Below are positions 11,522-28,290 of a stretch of 64,000 nucleotides of DNA, in pieces. The stretch lies in assembly GCF_055900595.2 (NCBI RefSeq), contig NZ_CM148325.1; one strand, given 5' to 3'. Both the position numbers and the translations under genes were made by a program. Numbering within the stretch: position 1 is the first letter of the stretch; every line of letters starts with the position of its first letter. Under the pieces are notes generated by a model. That model did no database searches. It had not been told where the DNA came from and saw only the letters and a list, made by a program, of their open reading frames with translations.

Positions 11522-11671
11522 GATAATCTCACCTAAGAATTGCGTGGTTATAAATTATCATCACTGTAAGCGAATGTAAGCCACAGACTCGTAATGTGAT
11601 ATGGAATTTTGATAGTTGGCTCAATATCAGTATGCCGTCCTTGGCTATTATGGTTTTGTTAGTTAGAGCGT

Positions 11672-14398
11672 CTATTCCCATTCGCTAACATCTTTCATGC
11701 CACTGAGGGTAGCTACAATCCCGGCCCTTGTCAGTTTCACGAATTCTTCAGCCCCAACGGCATCACGAATTGCTTTCATGGCAATTTTATTGGCCGAAAA
11801 TCGTTTCTCTGCTGCGGCGATCGCTGCTGGTGATGCCCCTGCGCGCACTGCTTTTGTAGCTTCCTGAACGGCTTTCTCTATCGCATATCGACCACTTCTT
11901 GTCGCCCCAATCTTAGCCACAGCATTTCTTAGCGCGCCACCAGCAACCAAACCACTAATCGAACCAATTACACCACCGCCAAAGCCTCCAGCGATCGCAC
12001 CTGACTGTTGAACACCGTTCATAATCACGCCGACGATCTTTGGAAGGCCTGAATCGAGCGTTTTGAGAGCCTCAGTTGTTCTTCCCGTGCGCTCTACGTA
12101 TCGCTGCGGTCTGGTACTGGCTTTAGCGAGTACACCGAACTCTTTCATCATTCTACCGAGATCTGGCGCATGACGACTGATGGCGTTTACATTCTGCTGG
12201 GTCATGAGCTTGGCAAAATACTGGATACCTGACTCTTCACCGATTCCTCCCTTCTCTCCCTGCGCCACAGCATGCTGAAGAATAGATGCTATTGCAGGTT
12301 GGCGTTCTGCTTCCGGCAGCGCGGAGATAAGACGGTGAAAAGCTCCCGTTCCAGTGTTTGCGGATGCCTTAAGCGTATCGGCACCTTTTCTTACCATAGC
12401 GTCTGATGCGAGATCTCGACCAAAAACAGATTCGGCATTTTGTTTGGCGATAATGTAACTTTTAGAGAGATCGTTAGCTTTCTGCCATTCTGTGAGGAAG
12501 TTTCCTTTTTCAGCCATGATGCGCATGTCATCAGTGATAGCTCTGCGCATTTCTCCGGCAATCCGGGCGGCATTGGCCTTACCTGCCCGGGTGTTTGCTT
12601 GTTCAGCATCAGCAAACTTAGCACGCCATGCCTTCATCCCGTCGAAGGTTATGCCGCCACCTTGGTTGTTGGCAGCCTGAAACTGTTTCATCTCCGGGCT
12701 GAGTGGAACATTGGCTGCTTTTTCTGCTTGGACGACAGCCATTCCATTACTCATTTTCATCCTTTCGCGTGGCATCGTGCTTCGCAGTTCTGCCCATGCC
12801 ATATTCTCTGCTGTTTTCATATCACTGAGGCTCGCGATGATGCGCTCTTTAATTGCTGCGCTTTTTTCTGATGCGCTTCCAGACTCAGCACCGAAATCAG
12901 ACAACTGCTTATTCAACTTTGAGGATATTTCATTGAAGGCCGTAAGGTGAGCATCCTGAACATTCCCAGGAGTTGATGCCAGAACACCTTCTGCTTGGGC
13001 AATTCCACGACTACCTGAGCGCATTCCAGGCGTCAGGGTGTTGATATTAATACCAGTGATTTTCGCCGCCTTAGCGACATCATCTCTGACGTTTGATGCC
13101 TGCGATGCGATATGCTCTCGGCCTACGGCAGAACGCGCTGCTTTCGATACATCATTGGCGGTTTCCAGAGTATTTGCTGCCCCTAACACATGGCCTGATT
13201 GATTTGTATTACTCCGCAATACATCTCGCATTACGTCACTGGCTGTCTGTCCGCTCTTTATTAAAGCGCGTGCTCCTAGCGATCCTGCTAGGCCAATACC
13301 TGTCTCTTTTGCTAGGTCTTCTGGGCTGATCTGCCCGTTCTTTTGGGCGTTCACCAATGTACCTGGCAGGTTTTCTGCCAACATACTAGCCACCTTTGTG
13401 GCCGCACGTTCAGCACGTGGAGCGTTGGCAACTGAAGAAGCTGCGGTAGCTGCCTTTCCTGCACCTAATCCTGTAATAAGGTAAGGTGCTAGCTGCTCAC
13501 CAGCCTGCGCGTATGGATCTGTAGGTTGGTCTACTGGGCGAAAGACAGGTGATATGGGCGTGTATGTGCCATCACCCACACCAAGCTTCTGAGCTGCCCA
13601 TGCTCCGGCTGATTGCGCCGCATTGACTACCCCCACGCCTGCGTCCATTACATCAAACGGTATATTAGCAATCCCTCTGGCCATCTGCTCTGGCGCAGCT
13701 TTCAGTCCTGGCGAAAGATATTCCATCTCAGGATTAAGGTTAGACTTGGCTACTTGCTGCTGCGGTTCCCCGGCATTTTCATCGGCGAGAAACTGAGCTC
13801 TTTTCTGCTCCCATGAACTGGCTGTTGGTAGTCCTGCTTCTATGTTCTTAAATTGCTGACGTTTTGCTTCCCATGCAGAAATATCTCCCACCTGAGAGAT
13901 TTCTTTATCAAGCTCTGAGTAGTCAGGCTGCTGAAGATTGCGATGTTGACTGGTTTGTGCAAACTGCAAGATTTCACTGTCATCAGGGATTATTCCGGCA
14001 TCTGCAAATTTACTTACGTAATTAGCCGTTTCATCTGGCAGTGTAGATTTACCGTTTCTGACGGCATTAATACGAGCATAGCCAGAATTATACCCAGCCA
14101 ATGCCATACCTATATCACCAAATCGCTTCATTCCTTTATTGAGATGGTTTGCTGCGATATCCATTTGCTTTTCAAATGGCAGTGAGCGCGGATCTGTTCC
14201 ACGATAACCAGCATCACTCATTACTGAGGGCATCAGTTGAGCAAATCCTCTAGCTCCTTTCGGTGACTCGGCACTTCCGTTACCACTAGATTCATTGCCA
14301 ACTAATGTTTCCATCGTCCCTGATGGGAAACCATATTTTTCATCGAGATGACGGGAATAGGCTTTCTGTTTTTCTGTCAGTTGTGCCATCATTGCCAT
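11672..14398 (-). CDS. Phage internal virion/ejection protein with N-terminal lytic transglycosylase (SLT) domain
   Basis: 908 aa; SLT motifs ES(catalytic)...GARGFAQLMP...AGYNSGYAR near the N-terminus. Confidence 0.8.
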   Translation of the reverse strand: MAMMAQLTEKQKAYSRHLDEKYGFPSGTMETLVGNESSGNGSAESPKGARGFAQLMPSVMSDAGYRGTDPRSLPFEKQMDIAANHLNKGMKRFGDIGMALAGYNSGYARINAVRNGKSTLPDETANYVSKFADAGIIPDDSEILQFAQTSQHRNLQQPDYSELDKEISQVGDISAWEAKRQQFKNIEAGLPTASSWEQKRAQFLADENAGEPQQQVAKSNLNPEMEYLSPGLKAAPEQMARGIANIPFDVMDAGVGVVNAAQSAGAWAAQKLGVGDGTYTPISPVFRPVDQPTDPYAQAGEQLAPYLITGLGAGKAATAASSVANAPRAERAATKVASMLAENLPGTLVNAQKNGQISPEDLAKETGIGLAGSLGARALIKSGQTASDVMRDVLRSNTNQSGHVLGAANTLETANDVSKAARSAVGREHIASQASNVRDDVAKAAKITGININTLTPGMRSGSRGIAQAEGVLASTPGNVQDAHLTAFNEISSKLNKQLSDFGAESGSASEKSAAIKERIIASLSDMKTAENMAWAELRSTMPRERMKMSNGMAVVQAEKAANVPLSPEMKQFQAANNQGGGITFDGMKAWRAKFADAEQANTRAGKANAARIAGEMRRAITDDMRIMAEKGNFLTEWQKANDLSKSYIIAKQNAESVFGRDLASDAMVRKGADTLKASANTGTGAFHRLISALPEAERQPAIASILQHAVAQGEKGGIGEESGIQYFAKLMTQQNVNAISRHAPDLGRMMKEFGVLAKASTRPQRYVERTGRTTEALKTLDSGLPKIVGVIMNGVQQSGAIAGGFGGGVIGSISGLVAGGALRNAVAKIGATRSGRYAIEKAVQEATKAVRAGASPAAIAAAEKRFSANKIAMKAIRDAVGAEEFVKLTRAGIVATLSGMKDVSEWE

Positions 14399-15708
14399 CC
14401 CTTAAGTTTTGCCTGATAGTAACTTTCCGGCAGATAGCCATGTGCGGTCACATAATCCTTAACCAGTGAAGGATCCTGCAACAGCATTTTGGTATCAGTT
14501 TCTTCGTCCTTAGATTTGGTTACAGGAATACCGAGCCCGGCAATCTGTCGTTTCTGCATTCGAATAATTACGTCCTGCGCTTTATTCAACTCTCGCAAAA
14601 ATGCCTCATTGCTGGTTGCTGACTTAATGCCATTTTGAGATTGCATAAGGGCAGCCCTTTCCCCTTCGGTTGGGTTAGAGCCAAAAGTCCCTTTGAGGCT
14701 AGGCAGAATAACCTTTAGGTTGTATTCATCAGCTTTGGCGCGTAGGCTTCGTGTGTCTTCTGCTACATCAGGAAGGAATCCAAACCCCAGCGTCAGGGGG
14801 TTATAGTTCTGCGAGCGGGTAACGGCCGAAGGATGTTTCCCTACAATTCCCGCCAGTTCATGACCCACTTCAAGCGCAGAGTTCAAGGAGTCGATGTTAC
14901 CTGCAACAGTATTAATTTTATCGTTCATCTTCTCCACTTTCGCCTGCTGTATCTTGCTCAGTTCAGCATTGAGCTTGTCTCTCTCGATGTCATTTTGAGC
15001 ACGTCCAAGTCGTGCTTTCAGAACCATTTCTCTCGTGCGTAGTTGGTTATCGGATAGGACTTTGAACTGCTCCATATCGAGACGTCGATTACCCTGTTCC
15101 GCATTAACCTGAGCATTATATGCGGATGTATCTGCGTTCTGCTGTGCAATGCTCTGCCCTTGCTGCTTCTCTTGAACACTAAAGTAACTATTTGGATCAG
15201 CATGGAGGTGGATGAGGTCAGTGATTCTGTTGAATTCCTGTGGGTCATTCTGCCAAGACTGATAAACCTCTTCAGCAGGAAGACCAAATCGCTGTAATAC
15301 TGGATTTGCCTGCTGAATGGCCTTCTGCATGGTCAGTGGATCTCCAGTTTGTGACGCAAGACGCAGATTCATGGCAGCGTCAGCGGTCTGTCGATTTTGC
15401 TCAGCATCAATGAATCCCATCTGTTTTTGAGAATCAGCCATAAACTGGGGATACTGGGCCATTAACTTCTGCACGCCAACACGATCATTATTAGCTACCG
15501 CACTACCCAACCGTGCCTGATATTCTTTTAACTGCTGGGAAATTTGCGCCTGCTGATTAATCTCAGCAACGCCTCTTAGCCCCTGTAGCGCCATTAAACC
15601 TACGTTTGGCTGCTGCTGATACTGCACAGGCTGAGGAACGGAAGAACGAGGAGCATTATCATTTTGCGGTGCCATGCTAGGCAGCCCGCCAAGTTGCCAT
15701 GTCGCCAT
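14389..15708 (-). CDS. Phage internal virion/ejection protein (Gln-rich, coiled-coil)
   Basis: 439-aa ORF with start/stop overlap to neighbours in the same operon. Confidence 0.6.
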   Translation of the reverse strand: MATWQLGGLPSMAPQNDNAPRSSVPQPVQYQQQPNVGLMALQGLRGVAEINQQAQISQQLKEYQARLGSAVANNDRVGVQKLMAQYPQFMADSQKQMGFIDAEQNRQTADAAMNLRLASQTGDPLTMQKAIQQANPVLQRFGLPAEEVYQSWQNDPQEFNRITDLIHLHADPNSYFSVQEKQQGQSIAQQNADTSAYNAQVNAEQGNRRLDMEQFKVLSDNQLRTREMVLKARLGRAQNDIERDKLNAELSKIQQAKVEKMNDKINTVAGNIDSLNSALEVGHELAGIVGKHPSAVTRSQNYNPLTLGFGFLPDVAEDTRSLRAKADEYNLKVILPSLKGTFGSNPTEGERAALMQSQNGIKSATSNEAFLRELNKAQDVIIRMQKRQIAGLGIPVTKSKDEETDTKMLLQDPSLVKDYVTAHGYLPESYYQAKLKGWQ

Positions 15709-16385
15709 TAGAATCCAAGCCCCCCAACAAGACCAATAAGCCCACCACCAATAGCGCCGGCCGCAGTTCCTATTCCAGGAACAACGGAACCAAGTTGCGC
15801 ACCCGCTAAAGCGCCTGATGCTGCCCCACCAATACCACGCGCAAGACTGGATGGCTGCTGCGCCTGACCTGCACGAATAGCGCCAAGCCCCTGCAAGAGT
15901 TGTCCGGTATTATTGGCGTAGTTTTGCCCTGCCGTTGCCTGCCCTGATGCCGCATTCATCCCGACATTTAGCAGGTTTCCATAATTTTGCATTTGCCCAC
16001 TGAGCCAATTGTTATAAAGCATGGGCGCAATGGAAGATAACTGGTTACTGGTAGCTGTTGAGCCAAGCCCCCCGGTAGCTTCTGCTGAGACAAGGTTCTG
16101 ATAACGGGCCTGATCTGCCTGTGTTTTATATAAACCAGAACCAAAGAAATCATTCGCGGCTTTATTCTGCCCTTCCAGAGTCATCAGTCCTTGTAGTTGT
16201 TGTAAAGCAGGCAATCCGACTTCTGCATACGGCTTGAGATTATTCATCACCGTATTCCACTGCTCGCGCTGCAAATCAATTGCCTGCTGCTGGGCCTTCG
16301 CCTGAGCTTTAGAGGCACCACCATCACCGCCTTTTTCGTATACGGCACGATTGAGATGTTTATGAGCTATGTGGGTAATTAACAT
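15708..16385 (-). CDS. Phage internal virion/ejection protein with Gly-rich hydrophobic C-terminus
   Basis: 225-aa ORF, overlaps neighbours by 1 and 7 nt. Confidence 0.6.
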   Translation of the reverse strand: MLITHIAHKHLNRAVYEKGGDGGASKAQAKAQQQAIDLQREQWNTVMNNLKPYAEVGLPALQQLQGLMTLEGQNKAANDFFGSGLYKTQADQARYQNLVSAEATGGLGSTATSNQLSSIAPMLYNNWLSGQMQNYGNLLNVGMNAASGQATAGQNYANNTGQLLQGLGAIRAGQAQQPSSLARGIGGAASGALAGAQLGSVVPGIGTAAGAIGGGLIGLVGGLGF

Positions 16386-16840
16386 TCGCTGAATTCCTTA
16401 TATTGTTGCCGAGTTAACTGATAAAGCGTTACGCCGACGGGTTTACCACATCTGATATAAGCATCATCAAGGTGACCAACACGGGTAGCGCCAAGCAAAC
16501 GGATAATTGCCCGTCCGTATTTGGTGGTGTCAGGAACCATGGTAATGCTGTTAAGGAATGGTGAGTTTTCGAGAAGCCATTTGCAGAATAATCGATGCCC
16601 TTGCAGTGCATATTCACCACGGAATCCGGGGTCGTACACCGCATGGCATTCAACAACGCTATGCCAGAAGTTACGCACTTCATGAACGCCAGCCAGCACT
16701 AATCCTTCGTAGATGCCGAGATATACCGCATCAGGCTTGATGTAGTACGTGTGCCCCGGCTCAACAATATTTTCGGTATTGCCTGGCTCGTTAAGAAAGG
16801 CCTGTAATCGCACAGGGTTATCAATAAATTTTAGTTCCAT
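16379..16840 (-). CDS. Hypothetical phage protein, first gene of ejection-protein operon
   Basis: 153-aa ORF. Confidence 0.55.
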   Translation of the reverse strand: MELKFIDNPVRLQAFLNEPGNTENIVEPGHTYYIKPDAVYLGIYEGLVLAGVHEVRNFWHSVVECHAVYDPGFRGEYALQGHRLFCKWLLENSPFLNSITMVPDTTKYGRAIIRLLGATRVGHLDDAYIRCGKPVGVTLYQLTRQQYKEFSEC

Positions 16841-16856
16841 GCGATGCCATCCATTT

Positions 16857-17018
16857 TCACATACAGCCTGCCAGCGCCTTATCTATTAACCCTCGTGCAA
16901 TTTCATGCAGAGTTGGCGCTACTCCAATTCCTGATTTTTTACGCTGCTCTTCCTGAATTTTCTTTATCGCTTCCATTTGCTTCTCACTTATCAATACCGG
17001 CTTTACTGAAATAGCCAT
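16857..17018 (-). CDS. Small hypothetical protein (53 aa)
   Basis: Hand-translated ORF below the track length cutoff, AT-rich promoter upstream. Confidence 0.3.
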   Translation of the reverse strand: MAISVKPVLISEKQMEAIKKIQEEQRKKSGIGVAPTLHEIARGLIDKALAGCM

Positions 17019-17466
17019 AACGCCCCCTTAGAACTGTATAAAACAACAGTTATTATAGTTTCACAAATCGCAATATTCATCATCGTAATTGCAAAATATG
17101 AAACAAATAGCACAAAAAAATGCCACCGCTCAGTAGCTGGTGGCATCGTTCTGTGTGTCAGGTTTTGACAGGTTTTTTATGGACTCTAAAAACTATATTT
17201 ATGGTGTCGCATTACTCTTCACGGCAGGCGCTTTTCAGTTCTGCCCTTGCTTCTGGCTCCATTGGTAATTTGATTCGCGATCAGCTATGCGGATGGTTTG
17301 CTGAACAGGCATAACAACTTCTCAGAGGCTGTTTTTTGAACTACGAAAATTTCGTAGTGCTCACTTTCAAAAACGTCACGCCCTTGTACACAGGATTTTA
17401 CGAAAGTCTCGTAAAACACTCTCTGATGCCAGCCAGGTGTTGTGCGCATCAATTCAGTCACATTGT

Positions 17467-17577
17467 GTTGGTTCAAAATACCGTGTTGTTGGTTCAGTGT
17501 TGGTTCAATAAAAAGAATAAAATCCTTATAAAACAATACTCTTTACAAATTGAACCAACTGAACCAACTGAACCAAC
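17467..17577. repeat. Iteron cluster B: 3 spaced GTTGGTTCA then 3 tandem TGAACCAAC; inverted image of cluster A
   Basis: Reverse complement shares a 45-nt near-identical block with 9295-9340; lies just downstream of the primase gene. Confidence 0.8.
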
Positions 17578-17602
17578 ACCTTTTCTACGCACATGAAGAA
17601 GC

Positions 17603-20362
17603 TCATTCTTCAGATGAGTTATAATCTCCTGGCTGGTAATTGAGTACATAAACGTTTATTTGTCGTCCCTGAATACGTGGTGATTTTCTTTGGTATCCAC
17701 GACCGCTGTTTGGTGGGGTTAGCATCCCGGCTTTTTTCAACACTTCAGCAAACTGTTTTGCGTTGAAACCACATGCGATCTCCTTTTCAAATGTGGCCGG
17801 GAATGTGTAGAAAATCATTGGGCTTTCGTCATGTTCTCCACGCTGACGGTATCCGGCTAAATCTTTGATGGGCAAATCTGCCGGGCTGTATGGAAATGGT
17901 GCAAAACGGCTAAGCCCATAGGCATTAAGAAATGCCTCCGTTTGTTCAATAATCTGCTGATGTTCTTTGTTACCTGTGCCGAACTCGCGCAACCATGCGT
18001 TATAGCTGTGCTGTATCGCATCACGGCATGTCTGAGCATCCCAGCCTGTTACAACCTCGCCTAACAGCAATGCGGCCTCCAGAATGGCAAATCGCGCGGC
18101 TACACGGTGAACCTGCTCACCATAATCGGATGGGATCAGGCTTCTCCATCTGCTTTCGCAATCACGAACGGTTTTAATAGCCTGTTGCTGGTGGTCTGCC
18201 AGCCATTTAATCCACTCACGCCCGGACGCGCCGTGGTGATGCTGGTAAGCGTCTTTCAGTGCGTCTGCGTGCTGTTTTCCGTTCTGGTAATCGTGAAAGC
18301 GTACTGCTTTACTCAACGGAATATTCAGCAGTCGCACCAGTTGCCCGGCTTTGGTTTTTCGCCCGGAAGTAGCGATAAATGTTTCTAAATCCATTTCTCC
18401 GGTGCTGATTGCCACTGTACGCCAACGTTTTAGATCCCGGTTTCCACCATCTTTAGCGCCTTGCAGTTTCCCTACACCGTTAAATAACGCATAGGCAGAC
18501 TGTGAAACGCTGACAGGATCAGCGCCCTGACCAACTTCATCAAGCGGCATTAGTCCGTCATTGTGGGCGGCGGCCTCATTTGCCAGCCCCAGCGCGGTTC
18601 CGTACCACGTCAGCCGCAGTAAATCAGGGTTGCCGTATAAGCTGCTCGCCACGTTTGCCGTGGTGGTCTTACCTGCGCTCGACTGCTCATAGAAATGAAT
18701 GCCGAACCCGTCAGCGCCCACCAGCCCAATCAATGGCGCTGCCAGTGCTGCGCCGATCCCGGTCATCATTGAATAGTTACCAAAGGCCAGACGCGCCACG
18801 TTATCACGCCAGCTTTTCGCGCTCCCTGAGACGGTATATCCGGCTGCGGCTGAGCTTCTCCCGCTGAACAGCACAGGATTTTCAGGTGTTCCGATGATTT
18901 CCCCATCAGGCATGATGTACGCTCCGCATTGCCAGCCAGTGGCATGAGCAACACGCCACAATTCACGAGAGCCACTGCGTTGTAGCCAGTCTGCCAGTAT
19001 TGCTCTGAGGCTGCTTTTGGTCGTGACATTTACCCCACCAGCTTTAAGTGTGCGCCATCCTTCACGTTCACCAATATCAGCCAGTGGAATGGCAGCGGTT
19101 GTCGGCGTTTCAGAACCAAACGACAGCCAGCGAAGAATGAGATACTGGTCTTTATCGTCTCTGCCAGTACCGATAACGCTTAACGGAGAACATAACCAGC
19201 TTTCGTTATTGATGATTTCTCCACTCTGGCTGTCAGCTCTCGGAGATACCCAATAAATACCATCCTCGCGGCTTTCTATTCTTGGTTTCAGTGGGTCGGT
19301 ATCCATAACCTTAAAATCGCTTCCCTCAATGGTCTGTGGCTCCTGTTTCACGCCATTACCCTGTGGTTGGTACATTGACTTATTGAACGCTTCTGTGGCG
19401 CATTTAATGCCGTGTTTTTGGTGGTAATCATTCCAGTCTGCTTTGTGATCTGTCGGGGGTAATGCCACCCATCCAGAAACAGATAAAGCTGCTTTTTCTG
19501 CTGCTATTCTCCCCGTGTTTTGTCTTCCTTCGCTGTGGTCGTTATCCGCAGCAATGATGATTTGTGCTGAAGGATATTTATCCCGCAGTACCTGGGCGAC
19601 ATATAACAGGTTCCCGGCATCAATCGCCGCCACTGTCAGCGCCTCTGGACGAATTAAATGGGCAGATAATGCCGTTGCCAGCCCTTCTGCGATTAAGATG
19701 CTCTGTGTTGTTTCTGGTGCGTTTATGGCGTGATATGCCCCCCGCTTTGCTGAACCTGTCAGGAGTCTTTTTTCACCATGTGAGGTAATAGTCTGTGCTG
19801 CTGTGACTGCGCCGGATTTATCCACCAGCGCCAGCAACAGAGATCCATCGGGCAACACGGGGAATGTAAAATCACCTACCCCTTTCGCAACCAGATAATC
19901 AGATTTGCCGTTTACAGCCTTTCTGCGCATGTCATCAAACTGACGGGAAAACGTATCCCGTCTTTGTTGTTCGTCCTTCTCTGCCCTTTTCAGGCGCTCC
20001 TGTTCGCGTCGCTGGCGCTCGGTTTCCAGTTGTTCCCGTTTCTGGCTGGTGGCTTCTGGTGTTTCCGTTGTCCGGTAATCAATACCCAGAACATCAGCGG
20101 CAAGAAGCGCCGCCTCTGTTGTGTCGCAGTTATTTACGCGTTTAATTAAATCCAGCCCATCACCAGCGCCGCACTGATTACAGATGAAGCTACCGCGCCC
20201 GTTGTCATCGAACCGGAATCGATCTTTGCCCCCACATGCAGGGCAGGGAGCATGACGGCGCGGAGAGTCAGGGACATTTATGTTCAGGCAGCCCAGCACA
20301 TGAGGCCAGTTGTTTTCAGACGCACTGATAACCTGACGGATAAGATCAATGTTTCGCATCAC
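17603..20362 (-). CDS. P4 alpha-like DNA primase-helicase
   Basis: 919 aa; zinc-finger CPACGG...CNQCG, TOPRIM-like acidic core IIIAADNDH, Walker A SSAGKTT. Confidence 0.85.
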   Translation of the reverse strand: MMRNIDLIRQVISASENNWPHVLGCLNINVPDSPRRHAPCPACGGKDRFRFDDNGRGSFICNQCGAGDGLDLIKRVNNCDTTEAALLAADVLGIDYRTTETPEATSQKREQLETERQRREQERLKRAEKDEQQRRDTFSRQFDDMRRKAVNGKSDYLVAKGVGDFTFPVLPDGSLLLALVDKSGAVTAAQTITSHGEKRLLTGSAKRGAYHAINAPETTQSILIAEGLATALSAHLIRPEALTVAAIDAGNLLYVAQVLRDKYPSAQIIIAADNDHSEGRQNTGRIAAEKAALSVSGWVALPPTDHKADWNDYHQKHGIKCATEAFNKSMYQPQGNGVKQEPQTIEGSDFKVMDTDPLKPRIESREDGIYWVSPRADSQSGEIINNESWLCSPLSVIGTGRDDKDQYLILRWLSFGSETPTTAAIPLADIGEREGWRTLKAGGVNVTTKSSLRAILADWLQRSGSRELWRVAHATGWQCGAYIMPDGEIIGTPENPVLFSGRSSAAAGYTVSGSAKSWRDNVARLAFGNYSMMTGIGAALAAPLIGLVGADGFGIHFYEQSSAGKTTTANVASSLYGNPDLLRLTWYGTALGLANEAAAHNDGLMPLDEVGQGADPVSVSQSAYALFNGVGKLQGAKDGGNRDLKRWRTVAISTGEMDLETFIATSGRKTKAGQLVRLLNIPLSKAVRFHDYQNGKQHADALKDAYQHHHGASGREWIKWLADHQQQAIKTVRDCESRWRSLIPSDYGEQVHRVAARFAILEAALLLGEVVTGWDAQTCRDAIQHSYNAWLREFGTGNKEHQQIIEQTEAFLNAYGLSRFAPFPYSPADLPIKDLAGYRQRGEHDESPMIFYTFPATFEKEIACGFNAKQFAEVLKKAGMLTPPNSGRGYQRKSPRIQGRQINVYVLNYQPGDYNSSEE

Positions 20363-20717
20363 CGTACCCCACGTGGTCTATAGCGTTTGCGATATGGCTA
20401 ACCAGCATCTGCCACTTGGTTATTCCGTAATCAGTCAGCATGCCATCATTGTTTAGCCACATATCAAATTCAGCGGTTGTCGCAAGTTTCCACTTATCGC
20501 CGTGGGCAGTCCTCATTGCTGGGTACATGAATGCGCAAATCAGATCACAAACATCTGACGGCTTCAGAGATGTAGTAATGATGCGTCCCTCTGGCGTCTG
20601 AATTGCCATTTTCTCTTCACCAGTAGAATGAAGGTTATGAATCCACACAGCACCAGCAATCTTTGCCACCTGCTCTCCGATTGCGGAGCTAAGCGCCATT
20701 TCTGCATTTTCACGCAT
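20346..20717 (-). CDS. Hypothetical protein
   Basis: 123-aa ORF in operon with primase. Confidence 0.45.
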   Translation of the reverse strand: MRENAEMALSSAIGEQVAKIAGAVWIHNLHSTGEEKMAIQTPEGRIITTSLKPSDVCDLICAFMYPAMRTAHGDKWKLATTAEFDMWLNNDGMLTDYGITKWQMLVSHIANAIDHVGYGDAKH

Positions 20718-21051
20718 GAGAACCTCCCGCTACAGTTGCGCCCATGTCATTAACCATGCTTTGCCATATCTCACGCCCGACGTCAGTCAATCCGTCCTTA
20801 GTGACGCAACGATCAAGAAGCTCGATCCCCACGGTTTCCCACTGCGGGTAGAACACTTTCATGGCTGCCAGTGTGTAGCTATCGATCAGGCTGCGAACGC
20901 CTTTTACTCCATTGACGATTTCCACACGGACGGCCTCGCCGTCCGCATCAACCATGAAATAGTCCCCGCCGCTGGTGGAGGTAATGTGGTTATACAGTGC
21001 CGACGCATACTTATTTGCCAGCGCATTCAGTCGGAAATTTTTAGTAATCAT
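20710..21051 (-). CDS. Hypothetical protein
   Basis: 113-aa ORF, 8-nt overlap with downstream gene. Confidence 0.45.
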   Translation of the reverse strand: MITKNFRLNALANKYASALYNHITSTSGGDYFMVDADGEAVRVEIVNGVKGVRSLIDSYTLAAMKVFYPQWETVGIELLDRCVTKDGLTDVGREIWQSMVNDMGATVAGGSHA

Positions 21052-21061
21052 GGTTCCATCC

Positions 21062-21664
21062 TCAGTGCGTCACTGGTTCCGCTGGCATGCCGTTTTCATT
21101 CAGTTCAGCTATAAAGCTGTTGTGAAGTTCAGCAAGCGTTTCACGACCAAATGGAGTCAGTGCTCCTTGTTCCACATCCATCATGGCTCTGTAGAAAATG
21201 ATGGCGCGTTCTGTGCCAGACTCGATGCCAAAACGTTCTATCATCGCGCCCTCAATGTTGTTTGCCATAGCGAGGCGCTCTGCTACTGGATACAGCGGCA
21301 TGGCGACGATGCCGTTGGAATAAACAGCCACTTCGGAAGGGTTGCCAGTATCATCAATGATGCTGACAGTGCCGTTTTCCTCTCTCATTTCCAGCATGAA
21401 TACTGTTGCGATCAGCCATCTCCACATAATGACGTTATGCTGTGATGTGTAATCGAAATATCCCTGGTTGCCGCCATCGGCTATAGCGAGATGTATTGAC
21501 ATACCTTCATCTGGTTTATCGTCATAATCCCCGGCATCCAGACGATTTACGGCATCAATATATGAGACGGCCTCAACGCGTTCTGTCATGCCATCGTTGC
21601 TGCGGTACATGATGTTTACGCCGTCAGGCGTTGCTTCTGCATGGAAAGTTAAGAAATTATTCAT
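21062..21664 (-). CDS. Hypothetical protein
   Basis: Start moved to internal ATG (MNNFLTF...) giving ATG/TGA overlap with upstream ORF. Confidence 0.5.
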   Translation of the reverse strand: MNNFLTFHAEATPDGVNIMYRSNDGMTERVEAVSYIDAVNRLDAGDYDDKPDEGMSIHLAIADGGNQGYFDYTSQHNVIMWRWLIATVFMLEMREENGTVSIIDDTGNPSEVAVYSNGIVAMPLYPVAERLAMANNIEGAMIERFGIESGTERAIIFYRAMMDVEQGALTPFGRETLAELHNSFIAELNENGMPAEPVTH

Positions 21665-21878
21665 GTTTCGCCTCGCCTGAATGATTCTGTAACTCATATT
21701 TGCCCAACAATTCGTCTGCTTCCTGAATAGCTTCTGGTACGCCATTGAGCAGTGACATAACCGCGCCAATCATTAACTTGTCTCTGTTGCTGGGGCTGGC
21801 CCCTTCAAGCCAGAACCCTAAAACAGTCTGAACCTGTTCGATGCGACATTGTGCTTCAATGAGCTGGATGTTGGTCAT
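21657..21878 (-). CDS. Hypothetical protein
   Basis: 73-aa ORF, overlapping start/stop chain. Confidence 0.4.
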   Translation of the reverse strand: MTNIQLIEAQCRIEQVQTVLGFWLEGASPSNRDKLMIGAVMSLLNGVPEAIQEADELLGKYELQNHSGEAKHE

Positions 21879-22138
21879 TTCGCACTCTCCGCATCGATTA
21901 AACTGATATCTATCAGAGAGGTAACTTTTTGTAGCCAGCTAGTGATTACTGTCGCCTGTTCCCCTCCCACCGATGGAAGAATCTCATTCATCACATGAAG
22001 CAGACCTGTGCGCGCCCTGGTAAGCCGTTCAGTCGTGCGATCTGCAAGAGTGAATGTGTCTGGATATGGCTCTTCACGGCTCAGCAATGATTCAATTTCC
22101 AGCTCACACGGATGACGATAAATTAAGTTGATATTCAT
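21875..22138 (-). CDS. Hypothetical protein
   Basis: 87-aa ORF, overlapping start/stop chain. Confidence 0.4.
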   Translation of the reverse strand: MNINLIYRHPCELEIESLLSREEPYPDTFTLADRTTERLTRARTGLLHVMNEILPSVGGEQATVITSWLQKVTSLIDISLIDAESAK

Positions 22139-22386
22139 TTTTCACCACCAAGAATTACCAGCTCTGCACGAGCATCGTTAACCAAAGATGAGCACGCTTT
22201 AATCGCATCCACGACATCAGCAGCGTCCATTTCTTCAGCCGAAAGACTGACAGCAACCAGGACAGCCGCTGCTTGCTCGATTAATTGAAGTGCGGACGTA
22301 AGTCGAGGGGCATTAATTGAGTTATTCATTGGTTGCCCCCGTTTTTCCTGGCATTTCGCCACCTTCCAGCAGGAAATGAACGTCAC
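22135..22386 (-). CDS. Hypothetical protein
   Basis: 83-aa ORF; true start may be internal. Confidence 0.35.
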   Translation of the reverse strand: MTFISCWKVAKCQEKRGQPMNNSINAPRLTSALQLIEQAAAVLVAVSLSAEEMDAADVVDAIKACSSLVNDARAELVILGGEK

Positions 22387-22540
22387 GAACGGCGAGATCC
22401 AATATCGCGAGTAACGCCTTCAGTCTTTCGTCTCGTGAGGGAGAGTTGCTCACCAGAATGTCGTTAATCACTTCTGTCAGTGTGATGATCTGGCTTGTGC
22501 GTTCGAGGGGATCCATATGCACATCGTAGGTTTTAATCAT
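22322..22540 (-). CDS. Hypothetical small protein
   Basis: C-terminal 72 aa of the long 355-aa track ORF; GGAGGTG RBS before ATG at 22540. Confidence 0.35.
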   Translation of the reverse strand: MIKTYDVHMDPLERTSQIITLTEVINDILVSNSPSRDERLKALLAILDLAVRDVHFLLEGGEMPGKTGATNE

Positions 22541-22874
22541 GTGCCACCTCCATGCGGATACGACCAGCAAAAAAGCAGACGTGATCGCGCACCAGAGAAC
22601 GGCGAGCATCGCGTTCAGACTCGGCAGCAATATGATGAATTTTGGCGGTAATTGTCGGGCAATCGCGGCGAACTGCGGCGATAATCCAGATAAATTGCGG
22701 TTTTTGGGTAGGGGTAGTAGCCAGCATGTGGCAGCCTCCTTGTACTGGGAATTCTTCCCACCACCGGAGCTGCGAAACTCGCTGGTGGTGGACTGAACAG
22801 AGTTCGCAGTACCGGCGTACAAGGAAACCGGCCAGCCTTTCGGCTGCCCTGTCCAGCCCACCATAATTTTGCAA
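22533..22874 (-). CDS. Hypothetical protein
   Basis: 113-aa ORF with ATG/TGA overlap at 22533-22540. Confidence 0.35.
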   Translation of the reverse strand: MQNYGGLDRAAERLAGFLVRRYCELCSVHHQRVSQLRWWEEFPVQGGCHMLATTPTQKPQFIWIIAAVRRDCPTITAKIHHIAAESERDARRSLVRDHVCFFAGRIRMEVAHD

Positions 22875-23385
22875 GCGACGCGGATTATAACCACATCACT
22901 GAAAAAAGTGTGAGTCTGGCTAACGGCACAAAAAAAGACGCTCGGCGCGTCATGTGTCGCCTCGTACATTTCCGGGCTGCGAAACCCGGCACCCGTTTTA
23001 TGAGGTGCCTTATAACCATAAACCGTGTTGCCGCATAACGGCAAGCTCTTTTTTATGGACTCCGAAAACTCACTATTGGAAGAACCAGAAGCACAGTACA
23101 TCGCGCTCATTTCGTTAACGTCACGCGCGTGGACGAATGTTTTTGTGGAGTCACTACACGAGCGGAAGACATCATCTACGACCAGAAATTTTCTGGCGCA
23201 GCCGCTGACCTTCTCAAGGCTAATATCATCGCCCGAGATTTCTGGTATGGTTAAGGCATCCGTTCCGGCCACCAGCAAATGATAAACTTTGCTTGTATCT
23301 GCTGTATTAATGCCTGACTTTGCCGTCATATTTCTGGATTTTGGCGACATACCAGCCAGTGAAAATGTCTTCTTCTGGATGGGTA

Positions 23386-23565
23386 TCATTGGTTAACCTC
23401 CGCGAACTCCTTCATGAAACGCGCCAGCGGTTGTACGCATGGCGATTGATACCCGTCGCGATAAAACGTCACTCGGTTGTGAGACACGCTTTCGACAGTA
23501 ACGAGTGCTCCGTGGGCATCTTTGTAGCGTTTTTGAGGTTGTGGTGTTCCTGTCGGCTTAAACAT
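23386..23565 (-). CDS. Small hypothetical protein
   Basis: 59-aa ORF from internal ATG overlapping antirepressor stop. Confidence 0.35.
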   Translation of the reverse strand: MFKPTGTPQPQKRYKDAHGALVTVESVSHNRVTFYRDGYQSPCVQPLARFMKEFAEVNQ

Positions 23566-24391
23566 GGACCGCCTCCAGACGCTTGGCGAGCCAGCGTTGC
23601 GACAGGCGGGTGAGTTCTCCTTTACGCTGCTCATATTCCATGCCCATATCAATTAACGTGATATTGGTGCTTTCGAGATATGAGAGGTGCTCAAGCTGTT
23701 CTGCGTTCATATGGTCGCGAGGTTCGCCAGAATAGCCATTTATCCGCGCCCACTGTTTAGCAGTTAGCCCACCAAGAACGATACGAGAAATCATATTGCT
23801 CTCGTTTGTGTAGTGGTGTTGCTGCGTCGTTTTACCCATCTCGGCACGGGCCATATTCAGCGCATCGCACATTGGCTTAAAGTTGTTTGCGGCACTGATA
23901 CGGGCTTTTAGCTGGCGACGATAGCGGGCGGCGATTTCAGGCACGCTACGCTGTAATTCTTCCTCGCACTGGATGAAATAACGGCGGATAGCGCGCCCCT
24001 GATCATTGCGTTCGATCATTGCCAGTTCTTTCGCCATTCCGACACTTAACAGATAGTCTTTGCCGGGTCTGCCAGACTGCTTAATCTTGCTGTAAGCCGC
24101 GTCATTCGGGCTTTTCCCCAAATTTGGGGAAATTGTTTTATGGACTGAGTAATCGTGCCCAATGGTGAAGTCATATTCAGAGATGCGATCAGTGATCCAT
24201 GTAGAGAAGTCTTTTCCCACGCCCAACGCTTTGTGTAACGCTTTTGCGCTAACAATATTGGTTTCACGCCCACCGATATGACCAGGAATAACCGGGACAA
24301 TTGCGGCAAATTCATTACCGTTAATTGTGCCCAGAGAGGCGTTCAGATGAGGGGCAGCCTCAGAAATTAATCTGCTTTTTTCGATGTTCAT
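23558..24391 (-). CDS. Phage antirepressor-like protein
   Basis: 277 aa; KALHKALGVGKDFSTWITDRI...LLSVGMAKELAMIERNDQGRAIRRYFIQCEE resembles AntA/KilAC-type antirepressors. Confidence 0.5.
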   Translation of the reverse strand: MNIEKSRLISEAAPHLNASLGTINGNEFAAIVPVIPGHIGGRETNIVSAKALHKALGVGKDFSTWITDRISEYDFTIGHDYSVHKTISPNLGKSPNDAAYSKIKQSGRPGKDYLLSVGMAKELAMIERNDQGRAIRRYFIQCEEELQRSVPEIAARYRRQLKARISAANNFKPMCDALNMARAEMGKTTQQHHYTNESNMISRIVLGGLTAKQWARINGYSGEPRDHMNAEQLEHLSYLESTNITLIDMGMEYEQRKGELTRLSQRWLAKRLEAVHV

Positions 24392-24403
24392 TTTCAGTCT
24401 CCG

Positions 24404-24835
24404 TTAGGCGGCGTTAAACGCGTCCGGGTAGAGTTTCAGAATGTCGGCAATTTCCTGCTGAGAAAGTCCGTTGTGATCATTTATGTTCGCAAGATGGTTA
24501 ACATGAGTGATCACTTTCAGAACATCACCACGGCAGGAGAAACGGTAGCGAAGGTGTGTTCCGATACCATCAGGATTCTTTTCGTCGATACGCTCCAGAG
24601 TGATTCCAAGCTGGCGTTCTAACTCTGTTGCATAGTTACGACCAGAAGACAGACGGCAGTAGCGAAGAATGTCATTTTCTGTCCATCCCTCTATACCAGT
24701 ACGCAGCATATAGACTCTGGCACGATGCTTTTTCGGTGTGCGCTTTGGTGCTTGAAGGGATTTTGTAAGGGGCGTAACATCAGATACACGAATATCTGAA
24801 TTAGCCGCCTGTAATGGGCGGTTTTTCTTTTCCAT
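24404..24835 (-). CDS. Hypothetical protein
   Basis: 143-aa ORF between antirepressor and alpA. Confidence 0.45.
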   Translation of the reverse strand: MEKKNRPLQAANSDIRVSDVTPLTKSLQAPKRTPKKHRARVYMLRTGIEGWTENDILRYCRLSSGRNYATELERQLGITLERIDEKNPDGIGTHLRYRFSCRGDVLKVITHVNHLANINDHNGLSQQEIADILKLYPDAFNAA

Positions 24836-25038
24836 CAGGCCACCTCGTCTCTAGATTCTAATATACACTTCTCAATCCATTCATCTATTTCAGACTCAAC
24901 AAAAGCAATTGCCCGACTTCCAATTTTTACCTGTTTAGGGAACCTCCCCTGACTAATAAGACGATAAATCCATGCTTTGCTATAACCAGTTCGCCTTTGA
25001 ACTTCAGAGAGACGAATTAATGAATTGTAATTAGCCAT
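24835..25038 (-). CDS. alpA: AlpA-family transcriptional regulator / excisionase-like
   Basis: 67 aa; LIRLSEVQRRTGYSKAWIYRLISQGRFPKQVKIGSRAIAFVESEIDEWI is the AlpA HTH pattern. Confidence 0.8.
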   Translation of the reverse strand: MANYNSLIRLSEVQRRTGYSKAWIYRLISQGRFPKQVKIGSRAIAFVESEIDEWIEKCILESRDEVA

Positions 25039-25466
25039 TTATTAATATCCTGTACTAATGACGCAATAACCCCCTCCTGCAACGAATGGCGAGAGTTTTA
25101 TTTGCGTCAAATGTCGAATACGCCAAAGACCACAATATGAAAAACATATTGCGGTCTTTTATAAAAGATAGTCAGATTGTTTTGGTTTGTTTGCTCCACA
25201 AGGGTAGAGCTACCCTGCATTTCGGCAGGATCACGCTATTAGGCGTGACATCCAGTAGTTTTAAAGAACAATTGCGCTTTGTCAGCGCCAAAGCCTGTTA
25301 AAGAACATTCCGCTTTGTCAGCGACGTAGAAGGCTCAATACACCTTCGTTTATAAAAGAGCGATTGCCCTTCTCCAGGGCTAACTGTTAAATAGCAATCC
25401 TCTGTGAGTTTTTATCAATCTACTCCCCTATACTTTAGTAAACCTCTGTATACTTGTCCAGTTGTT

Positions 25467-26681
25467 TCATGCGTGTTTTTCAAACACCATATGCACCACA
25501 TTTCCGCCATGCTCGAGAGAATCCATATAGTCGGCATACCATTGAAGCATCTCCCGCCTTCCATCCAGATATTGCGCATGGTTGTATGTGCCACGAATTG
25601 AGTTCTTATCAACGTGAGCGAGCTGCGTTTCTATCCACGCGGTGTTATAGCCCTGCTCATGCAAAATCGTACTCATAGTGTGCCGGAACCCATGACCAGT
25701 TACACGTCCAGCGTAGCCAATGCGCTTAAACACTTGGTTTATGCTGGCCTCGCTCATTGTTTTCCTTGGATCATTGCGCCCGGGAAACATAAGAGGGTAA
25801 TTGCCTGTTATTTCTCTAATCTTCCCAATAAGCGAAAGAGCCTGCTCAGACAATGGCACAATATGAGGCCGCCGCATTTTCATACGTGAAGCGGGTATCT
25901 CCCAGATAGCCTTGTTGAAATCAATTTCATCCCATAATGCGCCACGTAGTTCGCCAGTCCGCAAGCCGGTGATAATCAGTAGACGAGCCGCCATAACAAC
26001 CAATGCGCTTCCTGAGTAACTGGACAATGCCTTGAAAAAATCAGGTAATTCTTTGGCTGTAAGGAAAGGGTAATGATTAGATTCATGGCCTTGCATCGCG
26101 CTAGTAAGGTCTGGTGCAGGGTTATACTCTGCGCGACCAGTGACTATTGCATAGCGGAAAACTTCCCCGCACCGTTGCCTCACTTTTTTGGCTTTTTCTG
26201 TAGCACCGCGCCCCTCGATGCGACGCAGCACATTCAGAAGTTCAAGTGGTTTGATTTCGGCGATGGGTTTTTTGCCAATGTAAGGGAACACATCTTTGTT
26301 GAAGGCTTCGAGGATGTCTGAAGCATAACCAGCAGACCATTTTTTTAATTTGCTGCTGTGCCACTCAAGGGCAATATCTTTGAAGGTGTTGTTTAACTGC
26401 GTTTCCCGGGCAATCTTTTCCTCTCGTTTCGCTTCCATCGGATCGATACCACCAGCGATACCTCTTTTCGCATCTTCACGTTTTGCCCGAGCATCGGCTA
26501 GAGTAACCTCAGGATAAACACCTAGTGCCAATAGCTTCTCTTTACCAGCTACACGATATTTAAGTCGCCAGTATTTACCTCCATTAGGTTTTACCAAGAG
26601 ATACAAACCGCCACCATCGGCCAGCTTGTAAGCCTTCTCTTTTGGCTTGGCTGTGTCTATTTGACGGGCATTGAGTTTCAC
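25467..26681 (-). CDS. P4-type tyrosine integrase
   Basis: 404 aa; MKLNARQIDTAKPKEK... N-terminus, C-terminal HGFRHT...H..Y catalytic region; adjacent to tRNA. Confidence 0.9.
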   Translation of the reverse strand: MKLNARQIDTAKPKEKAYKLADGGGLYLLVKPNGGKYWRLKYRVAGKEKLLALGVYPEVTLADARAKREDAKRGIAGGIDPMEAKREEKIARETQLNNTFKDIALEWHSSKLKKWSAGYASDILEAFNKDVFPYIGKKPIAEIKPLELLNVLRRIEGRGATEKAKKVRQRCGEVFRYAIVTGRAEYNPAPDLTSAMQGHESNHYPFLTAKELPDFFKALSSYSGSALVVMAARLLIITGLRTGELRGALWDEIDFNKAIWEIPASRMKMRRPHIVPLSEQALSLIGKIREITGNYPLMFPGRNDPRKTMSEASINQVFKRIGYAGRVTGHGFRHTMSTILHEQGYNTAWIETQLAHVDKNSIRGTYNHAQYLDGRREMLQWYADYMDSLEHGGNVVHMVFEKHA

Positions 26682-26713
26682 TTGGGGGTACCTCCACTAA
26701 ACCGAACAGCAAA

Positions 26714-26734
26714 TACCCCCATAAGTACCCCCAT
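26714..26734 (+). repeat. TACCCCCATAAGTACCCCCAT motif in int promoter/attL region
   Basis: Second copy of motif at 6207-6227. Confidence 0.4.
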
Positions 26735-26846
26735 CTGACCGTAGATTTTGAGGGACTTTAGTAGACGTCAAAAGACGAACGGGGCTTTAATACGCGGATT
26801 ATAAGGGGTTTTGAAAGACTTTAGTAGACTTGGGGAGATGTTTGAA

Positions 26847-26922
26847 TGGTGCCGATAATAGGAGTCGAACCTACGACCTTCGCATTACGAATGCGCTGCT
26901 CTACCAACTGAGCTATATCGGC
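26847..26922 (-). tRNA. thrW: tRNA-Thr (anticodon CGU)
   Basis: Reverse complement GCCGATATAGCTCAGTTGGTAGAGCAGCGCATTCGTAATGCG...TATCGGCACCA; anticodon loop TTCGTAA. Confidence 0.9.
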
Positions 26923-27036
26923 CCTGAAAGGACATGTTCACGAACGTGAATCACGGTGGACAAGGTTAAAACTAACCGGGCGATGCGTCAATGGCCTTGT
27001 GAATCAAATGGCTACTTTTGCATCACCCGGTTTTAT

Positions 27037-28290
27037 TTATGCACGAATGGTGTAATCACCAATGCCGATCCACTTGTAGGTGGTCAGAGCTTCCAGCCCC
27101 ATTGGGCCGCGCGCGTGGAGTTTTTGTGTGCTTACCGCAACTTCCGCCCCCAGACCAAACTGGCCGCCGTCGGTAAAACGCGTAGAGGCGTTAACGTAAA
27201 CAGCGGAGGAATCCACTTCGTTAACAAAACGCTGGGCGTTGCGCATATCGCGGGTCAGGATCGCATCGGAATGTTGCGTGCCGTGTTCACGAATATGGGC
27301 GATGGCATCGTCAAGATCGCTGACGATTTTAACGTTCAAGTCTAATGACAGGAACTCATCGTCATACTCTTCGGCTTTAACAGCCACCACCTTCGCTGGG
27401 CCTGCCTGCAACTGCGCCAGCGCAGTTGCGTCAGCGTGTAATGTCACGCCGCTTTCCGCCATTTGCTTGCTTAATGCGGGCAGGAAGCTATCTGCGATGT
27501 TTTTATTTACCAGCAACGTTTCTACCGTATTACACGTGCTCGGGCGCTGAGTTTTCGCGTTGACAATCACTTTCAATGCTTCAGCGATCTCTGCACTTTC
27601 ATCAACGTAAATATGGCATACGCCTATACCACCTGTGATTACCGGAATCGTCGACTGCTCGCGGCACAGTTTATGCAACCCAGCCCCGCCGCGTGGGATC
27701 AGCATGTCGATGTATTTATCCATACGCAGCATTTCACTGACCAGCGCACGGTCAGGATTATCAATCGCCTGCACGGCACCCGCCGGTAAGCCACAGGATT
27801 TCAGGGCGTCCTGAATCACCGCCACCGTTGCCGCGTTAGTGCGACACGTTTCTTTGCCGCCGCGCAGGATCACCGCGTTACCTGTTTTCAGGCACAGCGA
27901 AGCAACATCTACCGTCACGTTCGGGCGCGCTTCATAAATCACGCCAATCACCCCCAGCGGCACGCGACGGCGTTCCAGACGCAGGCCGCTGTCCAGCACC
28001 CCGCCATCAATTACCTGCCCCACTGGATCGGCGAGGTTACACACCTGGCGCACATCATCGGCAATGCTTTTCAGCCGTGCGGGCGTCAGTGCCAGGCGGT
28101 CAAGCATCGCTTCGCTAAGGCCATTGGCACGCGCGTCAGCAACATCCTGGGCGTTAGCATTGAGGATGCTTTCGCTTTGTGCTTCCAGTTCATCGGCGAT
28201 TTTTTCCAGCACGCGATTTTTTTCGCGGCTGGAGAGTTGCGCTAATTTATACGAGGCTTGCTTCGCGGCAATGCCCATTTGTTCCAGCAT
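27037..28290 (-). CDS. proA: Gamma-glutamyl phosphate reductase
   Basis: 417-aa translation matches ProA. Confidence 0.95.

Follow-up and report, generated by a model that had tools for sequence, protein, structure and literature searches.

In phages P1 and P7, the immI region carries a C4-family RNA followed by the icd gene, the ribosome-binding site of which is the antisense target, and in P1 the ant gene lies downstream of icd within the controlled operon. The nomenclature of satellite P4 designates the upstream target as seqA, the downstream target as seqC and the CI-internal sequence as seqB, and the annotation of a P4 ‘cI protein’ is recognised as a historical error for an RNA (PMC4825925); CI is itself encoded inside the open reading frame (ORF) eta (PMC10111431). 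In the part of that article concerned with eta, which summarises Forti et al. 1999, eta is described as translated only from the late upstream promoter and as coupled to an alpA homologue, its translation preventing termination (PMC10111431). The IsrK RNA is a structural homologue of the P4 seqA RNA (PMC4825925), and profiles for C4 and isrK detect CI and seqA relatives in Gram-negative phage-inducible chromosomal islands (PICIs) (PMC10111431).

Among islands of the type considered here, mobilisation by a helper phage has been demonstrated for EcCIMP1 only, a PICI that excises on induction of the P22-like phage Kapi1, with transfer at a very low rate (PMC11773190). The EcCIMP1 alpA gene is induced by the helper and needed for excision, and the island is reported to aid, not harm, Kapi1; its 2025 description left the packaging mechanism and the natural helper open, and mentions neither the RNAs nor the small terminase gene (terS) fragment described below (PMC11773190).

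The window, by which we mean the whole stretch of 64,000 nucleotides that was analysed, holds at 10298-28183 a minus-strand island adjoining tRNA-Thr. Across 17.9 kb this island shares 98.6% identity with EcCIMP1 of E. coli MP1, with which it has in common the tRNA-Thr/proA site, the gene order, the immunity type and an ORF of 355 codons. Features of Gram-negative PICIs are present throughout (int, alpA, an antirepressor or ‘Bro’ zone, a primase and integration at a tRNA), and, judged by sequence and gene order, the host element is an EcCIMP1-type PICI. Homologues of P22 genes 14, 7, 20 and 16 sit downstream of the primase gene, and its helpers are therefore expected to be P22-like, in contrast to P4, a P2-dependent satellite; neither sid, psu or delta nor a P2-type cos site appears in the annotation of the near-identical EcCIMP1, a part of the island ORFs having been scanned. 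The features of the island and of its control region are as follows, in the direction of transcription.

26847-26922: tRNA-Thr, the integration-site tRNA of the island
25467-26681, minus strand: int
24835-25038, minus strand: alpA
between alpA and the antirepressor in the gene order, minus strand: gene for a protein of 143 aa
23558-24391, minus strand: AntA/AntB antirepressor gene
23386-23565, minus strand: DUF4222 gene (Pfam PF13973, E 5.7e-25; also called by PGAP), the upstream neighbour of the long ORF
22322-23389, minus strand: eta-like ORF of 355 codons, from the ORF list (PGAP ‘ash family protein’, WP_021527546.1)
23015-23044, minus strand: putative promoter equivalent to P4 PLE (-35 TTGCCG at 23044-23039, 18-nt spacer, -10 TATGGT at 23020-23015)
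22931-23008, minus strand: isrK-family leader RNA (Rfam RF01394, 69 bits against a gathering score of 50)
22967-22960, minus strand: seqA, the upstream target, GUACGAGG, in the leader
22953-22951, minus strand: conserved AUG in the leader, from the alignment to P4
22951-22937, minus strand: stem of the predicted intrinsic terminator of the leader, followed by U7 (terminator scan)
22781-22868, minus strand: C4/CI-family immunity RNA (Rfam RF01695, 81.1 bits against a gathering score of 45, full-length)
22824-22817, minus strand: loop of the second CI hairpin, CCUUGUAC (seqB in P4 nomenclature), the specificity determinant
22745-22738, minus strand: seqC, the downstream target, GUACAAGG, overlapping the GGAGG Shine-Dalgarno sequence of icd (22739-22735)
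22533-22727, minus strand: icd-like (P4 kil-like) cell-division-inhibitor gene (NCBIfam NF033153, E 3.7e-20; also called by PGAP)
22322-22540, minus strand: gene for a protein of 72 aa (a PGAP CDS in L001), lying in frame within the last part of the long ORF
17603-20362, minus strand: primase gene, following the icd-like gene and small genes

The stretch 22875-23385 is very probably the immunity and control region of this EcCIMP1-type island, read on the minus strand and built like the PLE-seqA-CI-seqC-kil/eta region of P4, and its features are not the product of chance. Rfam searches at curated thresholds placed both RNA families above their gathering scores (E-values of the two matches 1e-12 and 2.5e-14), and P4 returned the same pair in the same order and strand arrangement, with isrK at the PLE leader (8615-8692) and C4 at the CI RNA (8420-8507); both families also exceed their gathering scores in four IMG/VR relatives. 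An RNA-based regulator as in P4, raised as a possibility in the initial annotation together with a covariance-model search for the P4 CI RNA and its target motifs, is supported by that search, through RF01394 and RF01695, and by the three-way covariation set out below. Its placement requires adjustment: the isrK leader is inside the stretch, the CI/C4 RNA lies 7 nt outside it, to the left of the interval, and about two thirds of the interval (23045-23389) is occupied not by regulator RNA but by the 5′ part of the eta-like ORF with the terS fragment.

The putative promoter aligns with CTTGCC...TATAGT of P4, the -10 element reading TATGGT in the window against TATAGT in P4; it matches the consensus at 8 of 12 positions, and for this reason was not called by a generic promoter scan. 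Transcription is predicted to start near 23008, the position at which the isrK model begins. In a three-way alignment with P4 the order of promoter, leader, terminator, CI and Shine-Dalgarno/ATG is conserved, the leader terminator, the CI fold and the target overlapping the Shine-Dalgarno sequence all finding their counterparts, and the leader and terminator contain an invariant pattern, GGCGACAYAUGACGCGCC...GCGUCU7. Taken alone, the isrK leader folds no better than shuffled sequences (z = -0.9); the CI RNA folds far better than its shuffles (z-score -4.9), with compensatory changes in 11/28 pairs across six types.

The CI loop CCUUGUAC is complementary both to GUACGAGG in the leader and to GUACAAGG over the icd Shine-Dalgarno sequence. 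These specificity sequences differ from those of P4 (GUACGAGG / CCUUGUAC / GUACAAGG here, UUCACAGG / CCUGUGAA in P4), and seqA, the CI loop and seqC change together through six specificities, namely those of this locus, of a second copy in the window, of P4 and of three IMG/VR types. The cognate duplex was the best in every row of both pairing matrices, with cognate means of -14.2 and -14.6 kcal/mol against non-cognate means of -7.1 and -6.1 kcal/mol; for the duplex of CI loop and seqC at this locus the cognate value is -14.9 kcal/mol, and the non-cognate mean -6.1 kcal/mol. The second copy of the switch, at 5053-5242 on the plus strand, is heteroimmune to the first.

The succession of a C4-family RNA and an icd gene with a targeted ribosome-binding site is also that of P1/P7 immI; P1, however, has ant downstream of icd, whereas here the AntA/AntB antirepressor lies upstream and the controlled genes are replication genes. 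The Gifsy-1 IsrK / orf45-anrP / STnc1160 system of Salmonella resembles the leader described here in belonging to the isrK family, in its Rho-independent terminator and in its conserved internal AUG, and resembles the locus as a whole in a downstream stable RNA that would likewise arise here from read-through (PMC4825925); its downstream cargo is anrP, in place of which this locus has icd and the replication genes, with the antirepressor upstream, and IsrK in that system has a trans-activating role.

A single ORF, the 355-codon frame, covers the entire stretch 22875-23385. The earlier view that no convincing protein gene is present there holds in so far as no conventional gene can be assigned, but the description of the stretch as occupied only by overlapping low-plausibility ORFs missed this frame, which is preceded by a GGAGG Shine-Dalgarno sequence, overlaps the TGA stop of the DUF4222 gene with its ATG (as ATGA) and is conserved as an open frame. 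Nor does the stretch lie between two operons, as had been supposed: antA, the DUF4222 gene, the long ORF, the small genes and the primase gene form one co-directional, translationally coupled string. Beginning 5′ of the internal PLE-like promoter, the long ORF extends across both the leader and CI RNAs and over the ribosome-binding site of icd, passes the 64 codons of icd out of frame without meeting a stop, and ends in frame with the 72-aa gene, the ATG of which overlaps the icd stop and the stop of which overlaps the next start. The window type has two extra nucleotides before the icd ATG, which accounts for the out-of-frame passage; in the IMG/VR relative L013, the long ORF is in frame with icd, as in P4.

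The eta ORF of P4 (214 aa; 8168-8812 of L003) has the same anatomy, starting 5′ of PLE, overlapping the end of vis and covering leader and CI, so that in both elements the RNAs are crossed in the same frame (compared by eye, EATHDAPSVFFC here and QATYDAPRVFFC in P4) by a long ORF with its start 5′ of the internal promoter and with coupling to the gene before it, and in both an icd/kil-like gene is the first under control. The two differ in the partner of the coupling (the DUF4222 gene here, vis/alpA in P4), in the part 5′ of the promoter (115 codons with the terS fragment here, about 40 codons in P4) and at the 3′ end, where P4 eta holds the icd-like kil ORF in frame, whereas the long ORF of the window shares its frame not with icd but with the nested gene that follows.

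The frame is open at full length in 11/14 IMG/VR relatives and in EcCIMP1, across three divergent types of RNA module; a second IMG/VR scan with DUF4222 yielded the same 14 contigs and no added diversity. A further relative, L012, keeps the frame despite having lost 1 and 38 nt (39 nt altogether). Full-length translation is not universal, since some variants in the databases change frame at the A6 run 23049-23054 or stop inside the RNA region; in a 98.9%-identical genome, PGAP annotates three separate items here, namely an ash pseudogene, a gene named Icd-like and a hypothetical gene.

Conservation of the frame, the naming of the product as a protein by PGAP, and strong family matches would also be expected if the ORF encoded a functional Ash/Eta regulatory protein as its main product, the RNA-family matches being secondary. 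We regard this as improbable. Pfam Phage_ASH (PF10554) matches with 99.7 bits against a gathering score of 26 (E 1.6e-28), but does so at residues 124-232 only, which is the segment 22694-23020, exactly where the two RNAs (isrK and C4) and the beginning of icd lie; the PHROG families named ‘transcriptional repressor’ match within residues 106-233. Every family match therefore falls on the RNA genes, where substitutions are compensatory for the stems and for the three-way pairing, and family membership says little about any protein function, the ‘cI protein’ of P4 being a historical misannotation of just such an RNA (PMC4825925). The first 115 codons (23045-23389, minus strand) have no match in Pfam, PHROGs or NCBIfam. 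Some third-position bias is seen in their 5′-most and 3′-most segments (6, 4, 13 and 3, 2, 5 by position), a point in favour of a protein, set against a pN/pS of 0.5-0.9 that indicates weak constraint, both measures resting on small numbers that give mixed signals on peptide constraint; many variants, moreover, are truncated or frame-shifted. A conserved ORF with homologues had been named in advance as evidence against an RNA regulator, and in form the ‘ash family’ ORF is one; the RNA interpretation nevertheless stands, because the Phage_ASH match sits exactly on the RNA genes, as in P4.

From P4 and IsrK we infer how such a region would operate, including its transcript start, RNA processing, termination and anti-termination by translation. 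While the island is quiescent, a short leader would be made from a constitutive promoter located within the long ORF (about 23044-23015), most transcripts ending at the terminator (22951-22931), and read-through would be processed into the stable CI/C4 RNA (22781-22868). Pairing of the CI loop with its two targets, seqA in the leader and seqC at the ribosome-binding site of the icd-like gene, would then cause early termination and a block of translation, and would so keep icd and the downstream replication genes, including primase, switched off. On induction of the island by a helper phage through an AlpA-dependent upstream promoter, a longer transcript would arrive from upstream and the 355-codon eta-like ORF would be translated through its coupling to DUF4222; ribosomes crossing the leader, CI and seqC would override RNA-mediated termination and join the upstream operon to the replication operon, of which the icd-like gene would be the first under RNA control. 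The long ORF would accordingly form a translational bridge by which the replication operon is reached from the antirepressor operon.

The part of the long ORF that lies 5′ of the promoter contains, on the opposite strand, a piece of phage packaging gene.

23135-23241, plus strand: 107-bp fragment of a P22-type small terminase gene (gene 3, terS), corresponding to nt 268-374, sense copy
23135-23156, plus strand: equivalent of the 22-bp P22 pac site, GAATGTTTTTGTGGAGTCACTA against GAAGATTTATCTGAAGTCGTTA in P22

The tract is 91.6% identical to terS of E. coli Lederbergvirus phages (E 4e-35), 89.7% to that of an E. coli W prophage and 86% to that of P22, and its phage homology starts at base 1 of the 22-bp pac site (P22 pac being taken as misc_feature 4-25 of AF527608). 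On these alignments, it descends from the pac region of a gp3-type terS gene. Its translation, a fragment of 41 aa, matches the small terminase family phrog_606 at positions 93-127 (E 6e-9), and its orientation is antisense to the transcription of the island itself.

A plus-strand gene in the stretch, in the form of the 85-aa ORF at 23025-23282 or of the 41-aa ORF at 23129-23254, is very improbable. Both ORFs exist and the 41-aa frame is the terS frame, but that frame is the fossil frame of a captured fragment, its GTG at 23129 has no Shine-Dalgarno sequence 5′ of it, and both ORFs are on the strand that carries none of the island genes. No family matched the 85-aa ORF, and with phrog_606 on the 41-aa terS fragment as the sole match for either, both candidates were rejected as genes.

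The tract varies with the local phages. Between 22300 and 23420, 36/39 differences between the window and EcCIMP1 cluster in 23083-23391, so that the tract and the 5′ segment of the long ORF represent a different allele from that of EcCIMP1, in which the sequence is GAAGG and the patch following the pac core differs. Immediately 3′ of the 22-mer, the window has an E. coli-phage allele of the E. coli W type (CACGAGCGGAAGACATCATCTAC), the Salmonella locus L047 and the IMG/VR relative L013 carry the exact P22 allele (CGCGAGCAGAACAGGTCATCTAC), and three other Salmonella loci have the P22 allele with two differences; the tract alleles thus track local phage terS alleles, E. coli versus Salmonella. 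For the third, EcCIMP1-type allele, no clearly matching phage allele was found among the matches listed in a search against phages. The 22-mer core TTTTTGTGGAGTCACTA, by contrast, is specific to the islands, among which it does not vary, and it resembles phage less than any other part of the tract, with 5-6/22 mismatches to phage against 2-5/85 in the remainder.

These patterns admit the reading that the tract serves no dedicated purpose and is a scar left by recombination: a piece of terS would have been captured, perhaps from an end that terminase had cut at pac, would have been kept phage-like by homologous exchange with co-resident P22-like phages, and would survive because it lies inside a translated bridging ORF; we hold this to be possible and put it forward tentatively, well short of probable. 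Most variable sites are at third positions of terS codons (11, 4 and 5 by position), the pattern expected of variation filtered in phages; beside the core, the window has an allele of the E. coli W type, and L013 and L047 have one of the P22 type, each identical to that of local phages; 23083-23391 is a mosaic hot spot; and, from the alignment, the E. coli phage allele would introduce into the minus-strand frame a TGA that is absent from the island allele. Neutrality does not predict a boundary exactly at pac, the same boundaries in all variants or an invariant, island-specific core, although a terminase-cut end together with an edge effect of gene conversion could explain both boundary and core.

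Satellites that carry the packaging site of their helper are exemplified by P4, the cos of which is that of P2, and by the cos PICIs 11capE and EcCICFT073; the cos-type PICIs share about 258 bp at 90% identity with the helper’s cos region (PMC10111431). The island resembles them in having a stretch of roughly 100-260 bp that is about 90% identical to the region of a helper packaging site (PMC10111431), and differs in that the site is of the pac type and lies in the immunity zone instead of at the distal end. With this precedent, the tract may be the packaging signal of the island, a pac-like 22-mer at which the gp3-type TerS of a P22-like helper would start headful packaging of concatemers, a reading that we consider somewhat unlikely.

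The start of phage homology at the first base of the annotated pac and the homologues of P22 genes 14, 7, 20 and 16, which point to P22-like helpers, speak for such a signal, as does the small amount of sequence context that P22 pac needs (PMC11260489). The published regular expression for P22 pseudo-pac sites (PMC11226127) finds the tract with 2 mismatches, but 64 kb should contain about 50 sites of this kind; since this made it uninformative alone, a weight matrix was instead built from ten functional P22 pac or pac-like 17-mers (PMC11260489, Table 1). On this matrix the functional sites score 18.1-24.8 bits; the alleles of other islands (EcCIMP1, Salmonella), with 18.3-18.9 bits, come near the bottom of that range, whereas the window allele reaches only 11.9 bits, within the range of chance. 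Relative to P22 pac, the recognition core of the island tract is altered, with G at position 10 in every island allele where all 10 functional sites have C or T, and with T at position 3 in the window, and it is in this core that the tract is least like phage.

A better pac-like site also exists elsewhere: the best P22-type site of the whole window, AAGATTTTTCTGATATC at 10652 on the minus strand, scores 20.3 bits, above the maximum of 30 shuffles, and lies near the distal end of the island, a place comparable to that at which the cos site of other PICIs has been mapped (PMC10111431). Its motif is identical in 4/4 relatives checked, and the 417 bp of non-coding sequence around it form a block that is conserved in about 545 E. 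coli genomes. A search of phages with the conserved distal non-coding block (10300-10830) gave no match. Repeats are present within 10300-10830.

Kapi1, the tested helper of EcCIMP1, also speaks for such a signal in the tract, its TerS being unrelated to gp3 and its transfer of EcCIMP1 very poor (PMC11773190). Similarity between Kapi1 DNA and the island is confined to the gene 14/7 homologues, and in E. coli genomes no Kapi1-type terS fragment in an island context was found among the matches listed, the partial matches listed all having as neighbour either the gene for the terminase large subunit or some other structural gene of a phage. Louie, by comparison, is a phage similar to the tract (90.7%) and also to the gene-14 homologue (81.8%).

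The orientation of the tract suggests a further function, that of an antisense RNA: the copy is sense on the plus strand and all island genes are on the minus strand, so that island transcripts carry its antisense, and a minus-strand transcript induced by the helper would contain 107 nt complementary to helper terS mRNA and could lower terminase expression. By alignment counts, complementarity reaches about 94% in the window and about 98% in L013 outside the pac core, where it is highest, and the tract follows local phage alleles as such a function would require. Gene conversion explains this tracking equally well, however, the segment lies within a translated ORF, and EcCIMP1 is reported to aid Kapi1, though Kapi1 lacks this type of terS (PMC11773190); an antisense role is accordingly quite unlikely. 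That the tract has some helper-directed function and is not a scar, either as a recognition site for gp3-type small terminases (alone or with the site at 10652 on the minus strand) or as antisense to helper terS, falls only a little short of an even prospect.

The stretch is best described as a P4-type immunity leader under an eta-like bridging ORF that holds a captured terS/pac fragment. Its RNA switch confirms the published pattern of P4-type CI/seqA modules in Gram-negative PICIs, and for annotation it means that an ‘ash family protein’ here marks an RNA-based immunity region, two heteroimmune copies of which are present in one window. What is added is the link to EcCIMP1, its packaging route and its natural helper: the terS fragment starting at pac is a new, testable lead, and the fragment and the distal pac-like site provide concrete test sequences. 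Should the tract have a helper-directed function, gp3-type Lederbergviruses (such as IME10, E212 or Louie; P22 in Salmonella) would be the natural helpers of these islands instead of Kapi1, which would explain the very poor transfer of EcCIMP1 by Kapi1.

A candidate packaging site lies near the distal end of the island, in an unannotated, non-coding block of 417 bp (10300-10716) that is 95-99% conserved across ~545 E. coli genomes. The motif within this block scored 20.3 bits, where the best of 30 shuffles reached 18.9, and is unchanged in EcCIMP1, the near-identical PICI, and in three other islands; its orientation is opposite to that of the terS tract (23135-23241, plus strand), a piece of a P22-type small-terminase gene. 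Judged from its sequence, it is a candidate pac site of the island, which also carries P22-type ejection-protein homologues, with the gene-14 homologue sharing ~82% DNA identity with its counterparts in Louie and in Kapi1, the P22-like phage tested as EcCIMP1 helper.

Candidate packaging site and ejection-protein homologues of the island
10636-10652, minus strand: P22 pac-like motif AAGATTTTTCTGATATC; no other sequence in the 64-kb window resembles the functional P22 pac-like sites as closely
11672-16840, minus strand: homologues of the P22 ejection-protein module (phrog matches), comprising
gene 14 homologue, phrog_651
gene 7 homologue, phrog_598
gene 20 homologue, phrog_917/2534
gene 16 homologue fused with a lytic transglycosylase, phrog_770

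A second RNA immunity module, in a neighbouring island remnant, is separated by ~18 kb from the first, and the two are heteroimmune: the specificity of the second isrK/C4 pair is CUUAUCGG / CCGAUAAG, unlike that of the first. No eta-like ORF covers the second pair (5053-5242, plus strand), and immediately 5' of it is an ORF that looks like defence cargo of a P4-like hotspot. Rfam matches elsewhere in the window, to isrC and to naRNA4/REP-type elements, are unrelated to the immunity-region finding; int-alpA RNA (RF02996), found between int and alpA in two relatives (L011 1197-1264; L013 1327-1393), stayed below the gathering threshold in the window.

Second immunity module, its neighbour and other RNA families
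1950-4949, plus strand: 999-aa ORF, a defence protein of the reverse transcriptase-nitrilase type (E 8e-288 to PADLOC RT_UG5-nitrilase)
5053-5131 and 5154-5242, plus strand: second isrK and C4
42387-42509, minus strand: isrC (Rfam, 145 bits)
43110-43181, 43845-43922 and 46568-46645, minus strand: three naRNA4/REP-type elements (Rfam)

Around the PLE-like promoter of the first module, a predicted plus-strand terminator-like hairpin (23028-23054; TTGCCGCATAACGGCAA then GCTCTTTTTT) overlaps the -35 element and is not kept as a terminator in P4. Just 5' of the promoter, a minus-strand A6 run (23049-23054) is the point at which several database variants of the long ORF, the eta-like 355-codon frame, shift frame (…SIKKSLPL… to …SIKRACRY…), which could reflect sequencing error or slippage.

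The long ORF traverses the icd-like gene (22533-22727, 64 codons) in a different frame without meeting a stop, and downstream of it is in frame with the next gene. In P4 and the relative L013 the corresponding ORF is in frame with icd, whereas in the window it is out of frame; this out-of-frame passage may be selected, for example by masking icd translation on the induced transcript.
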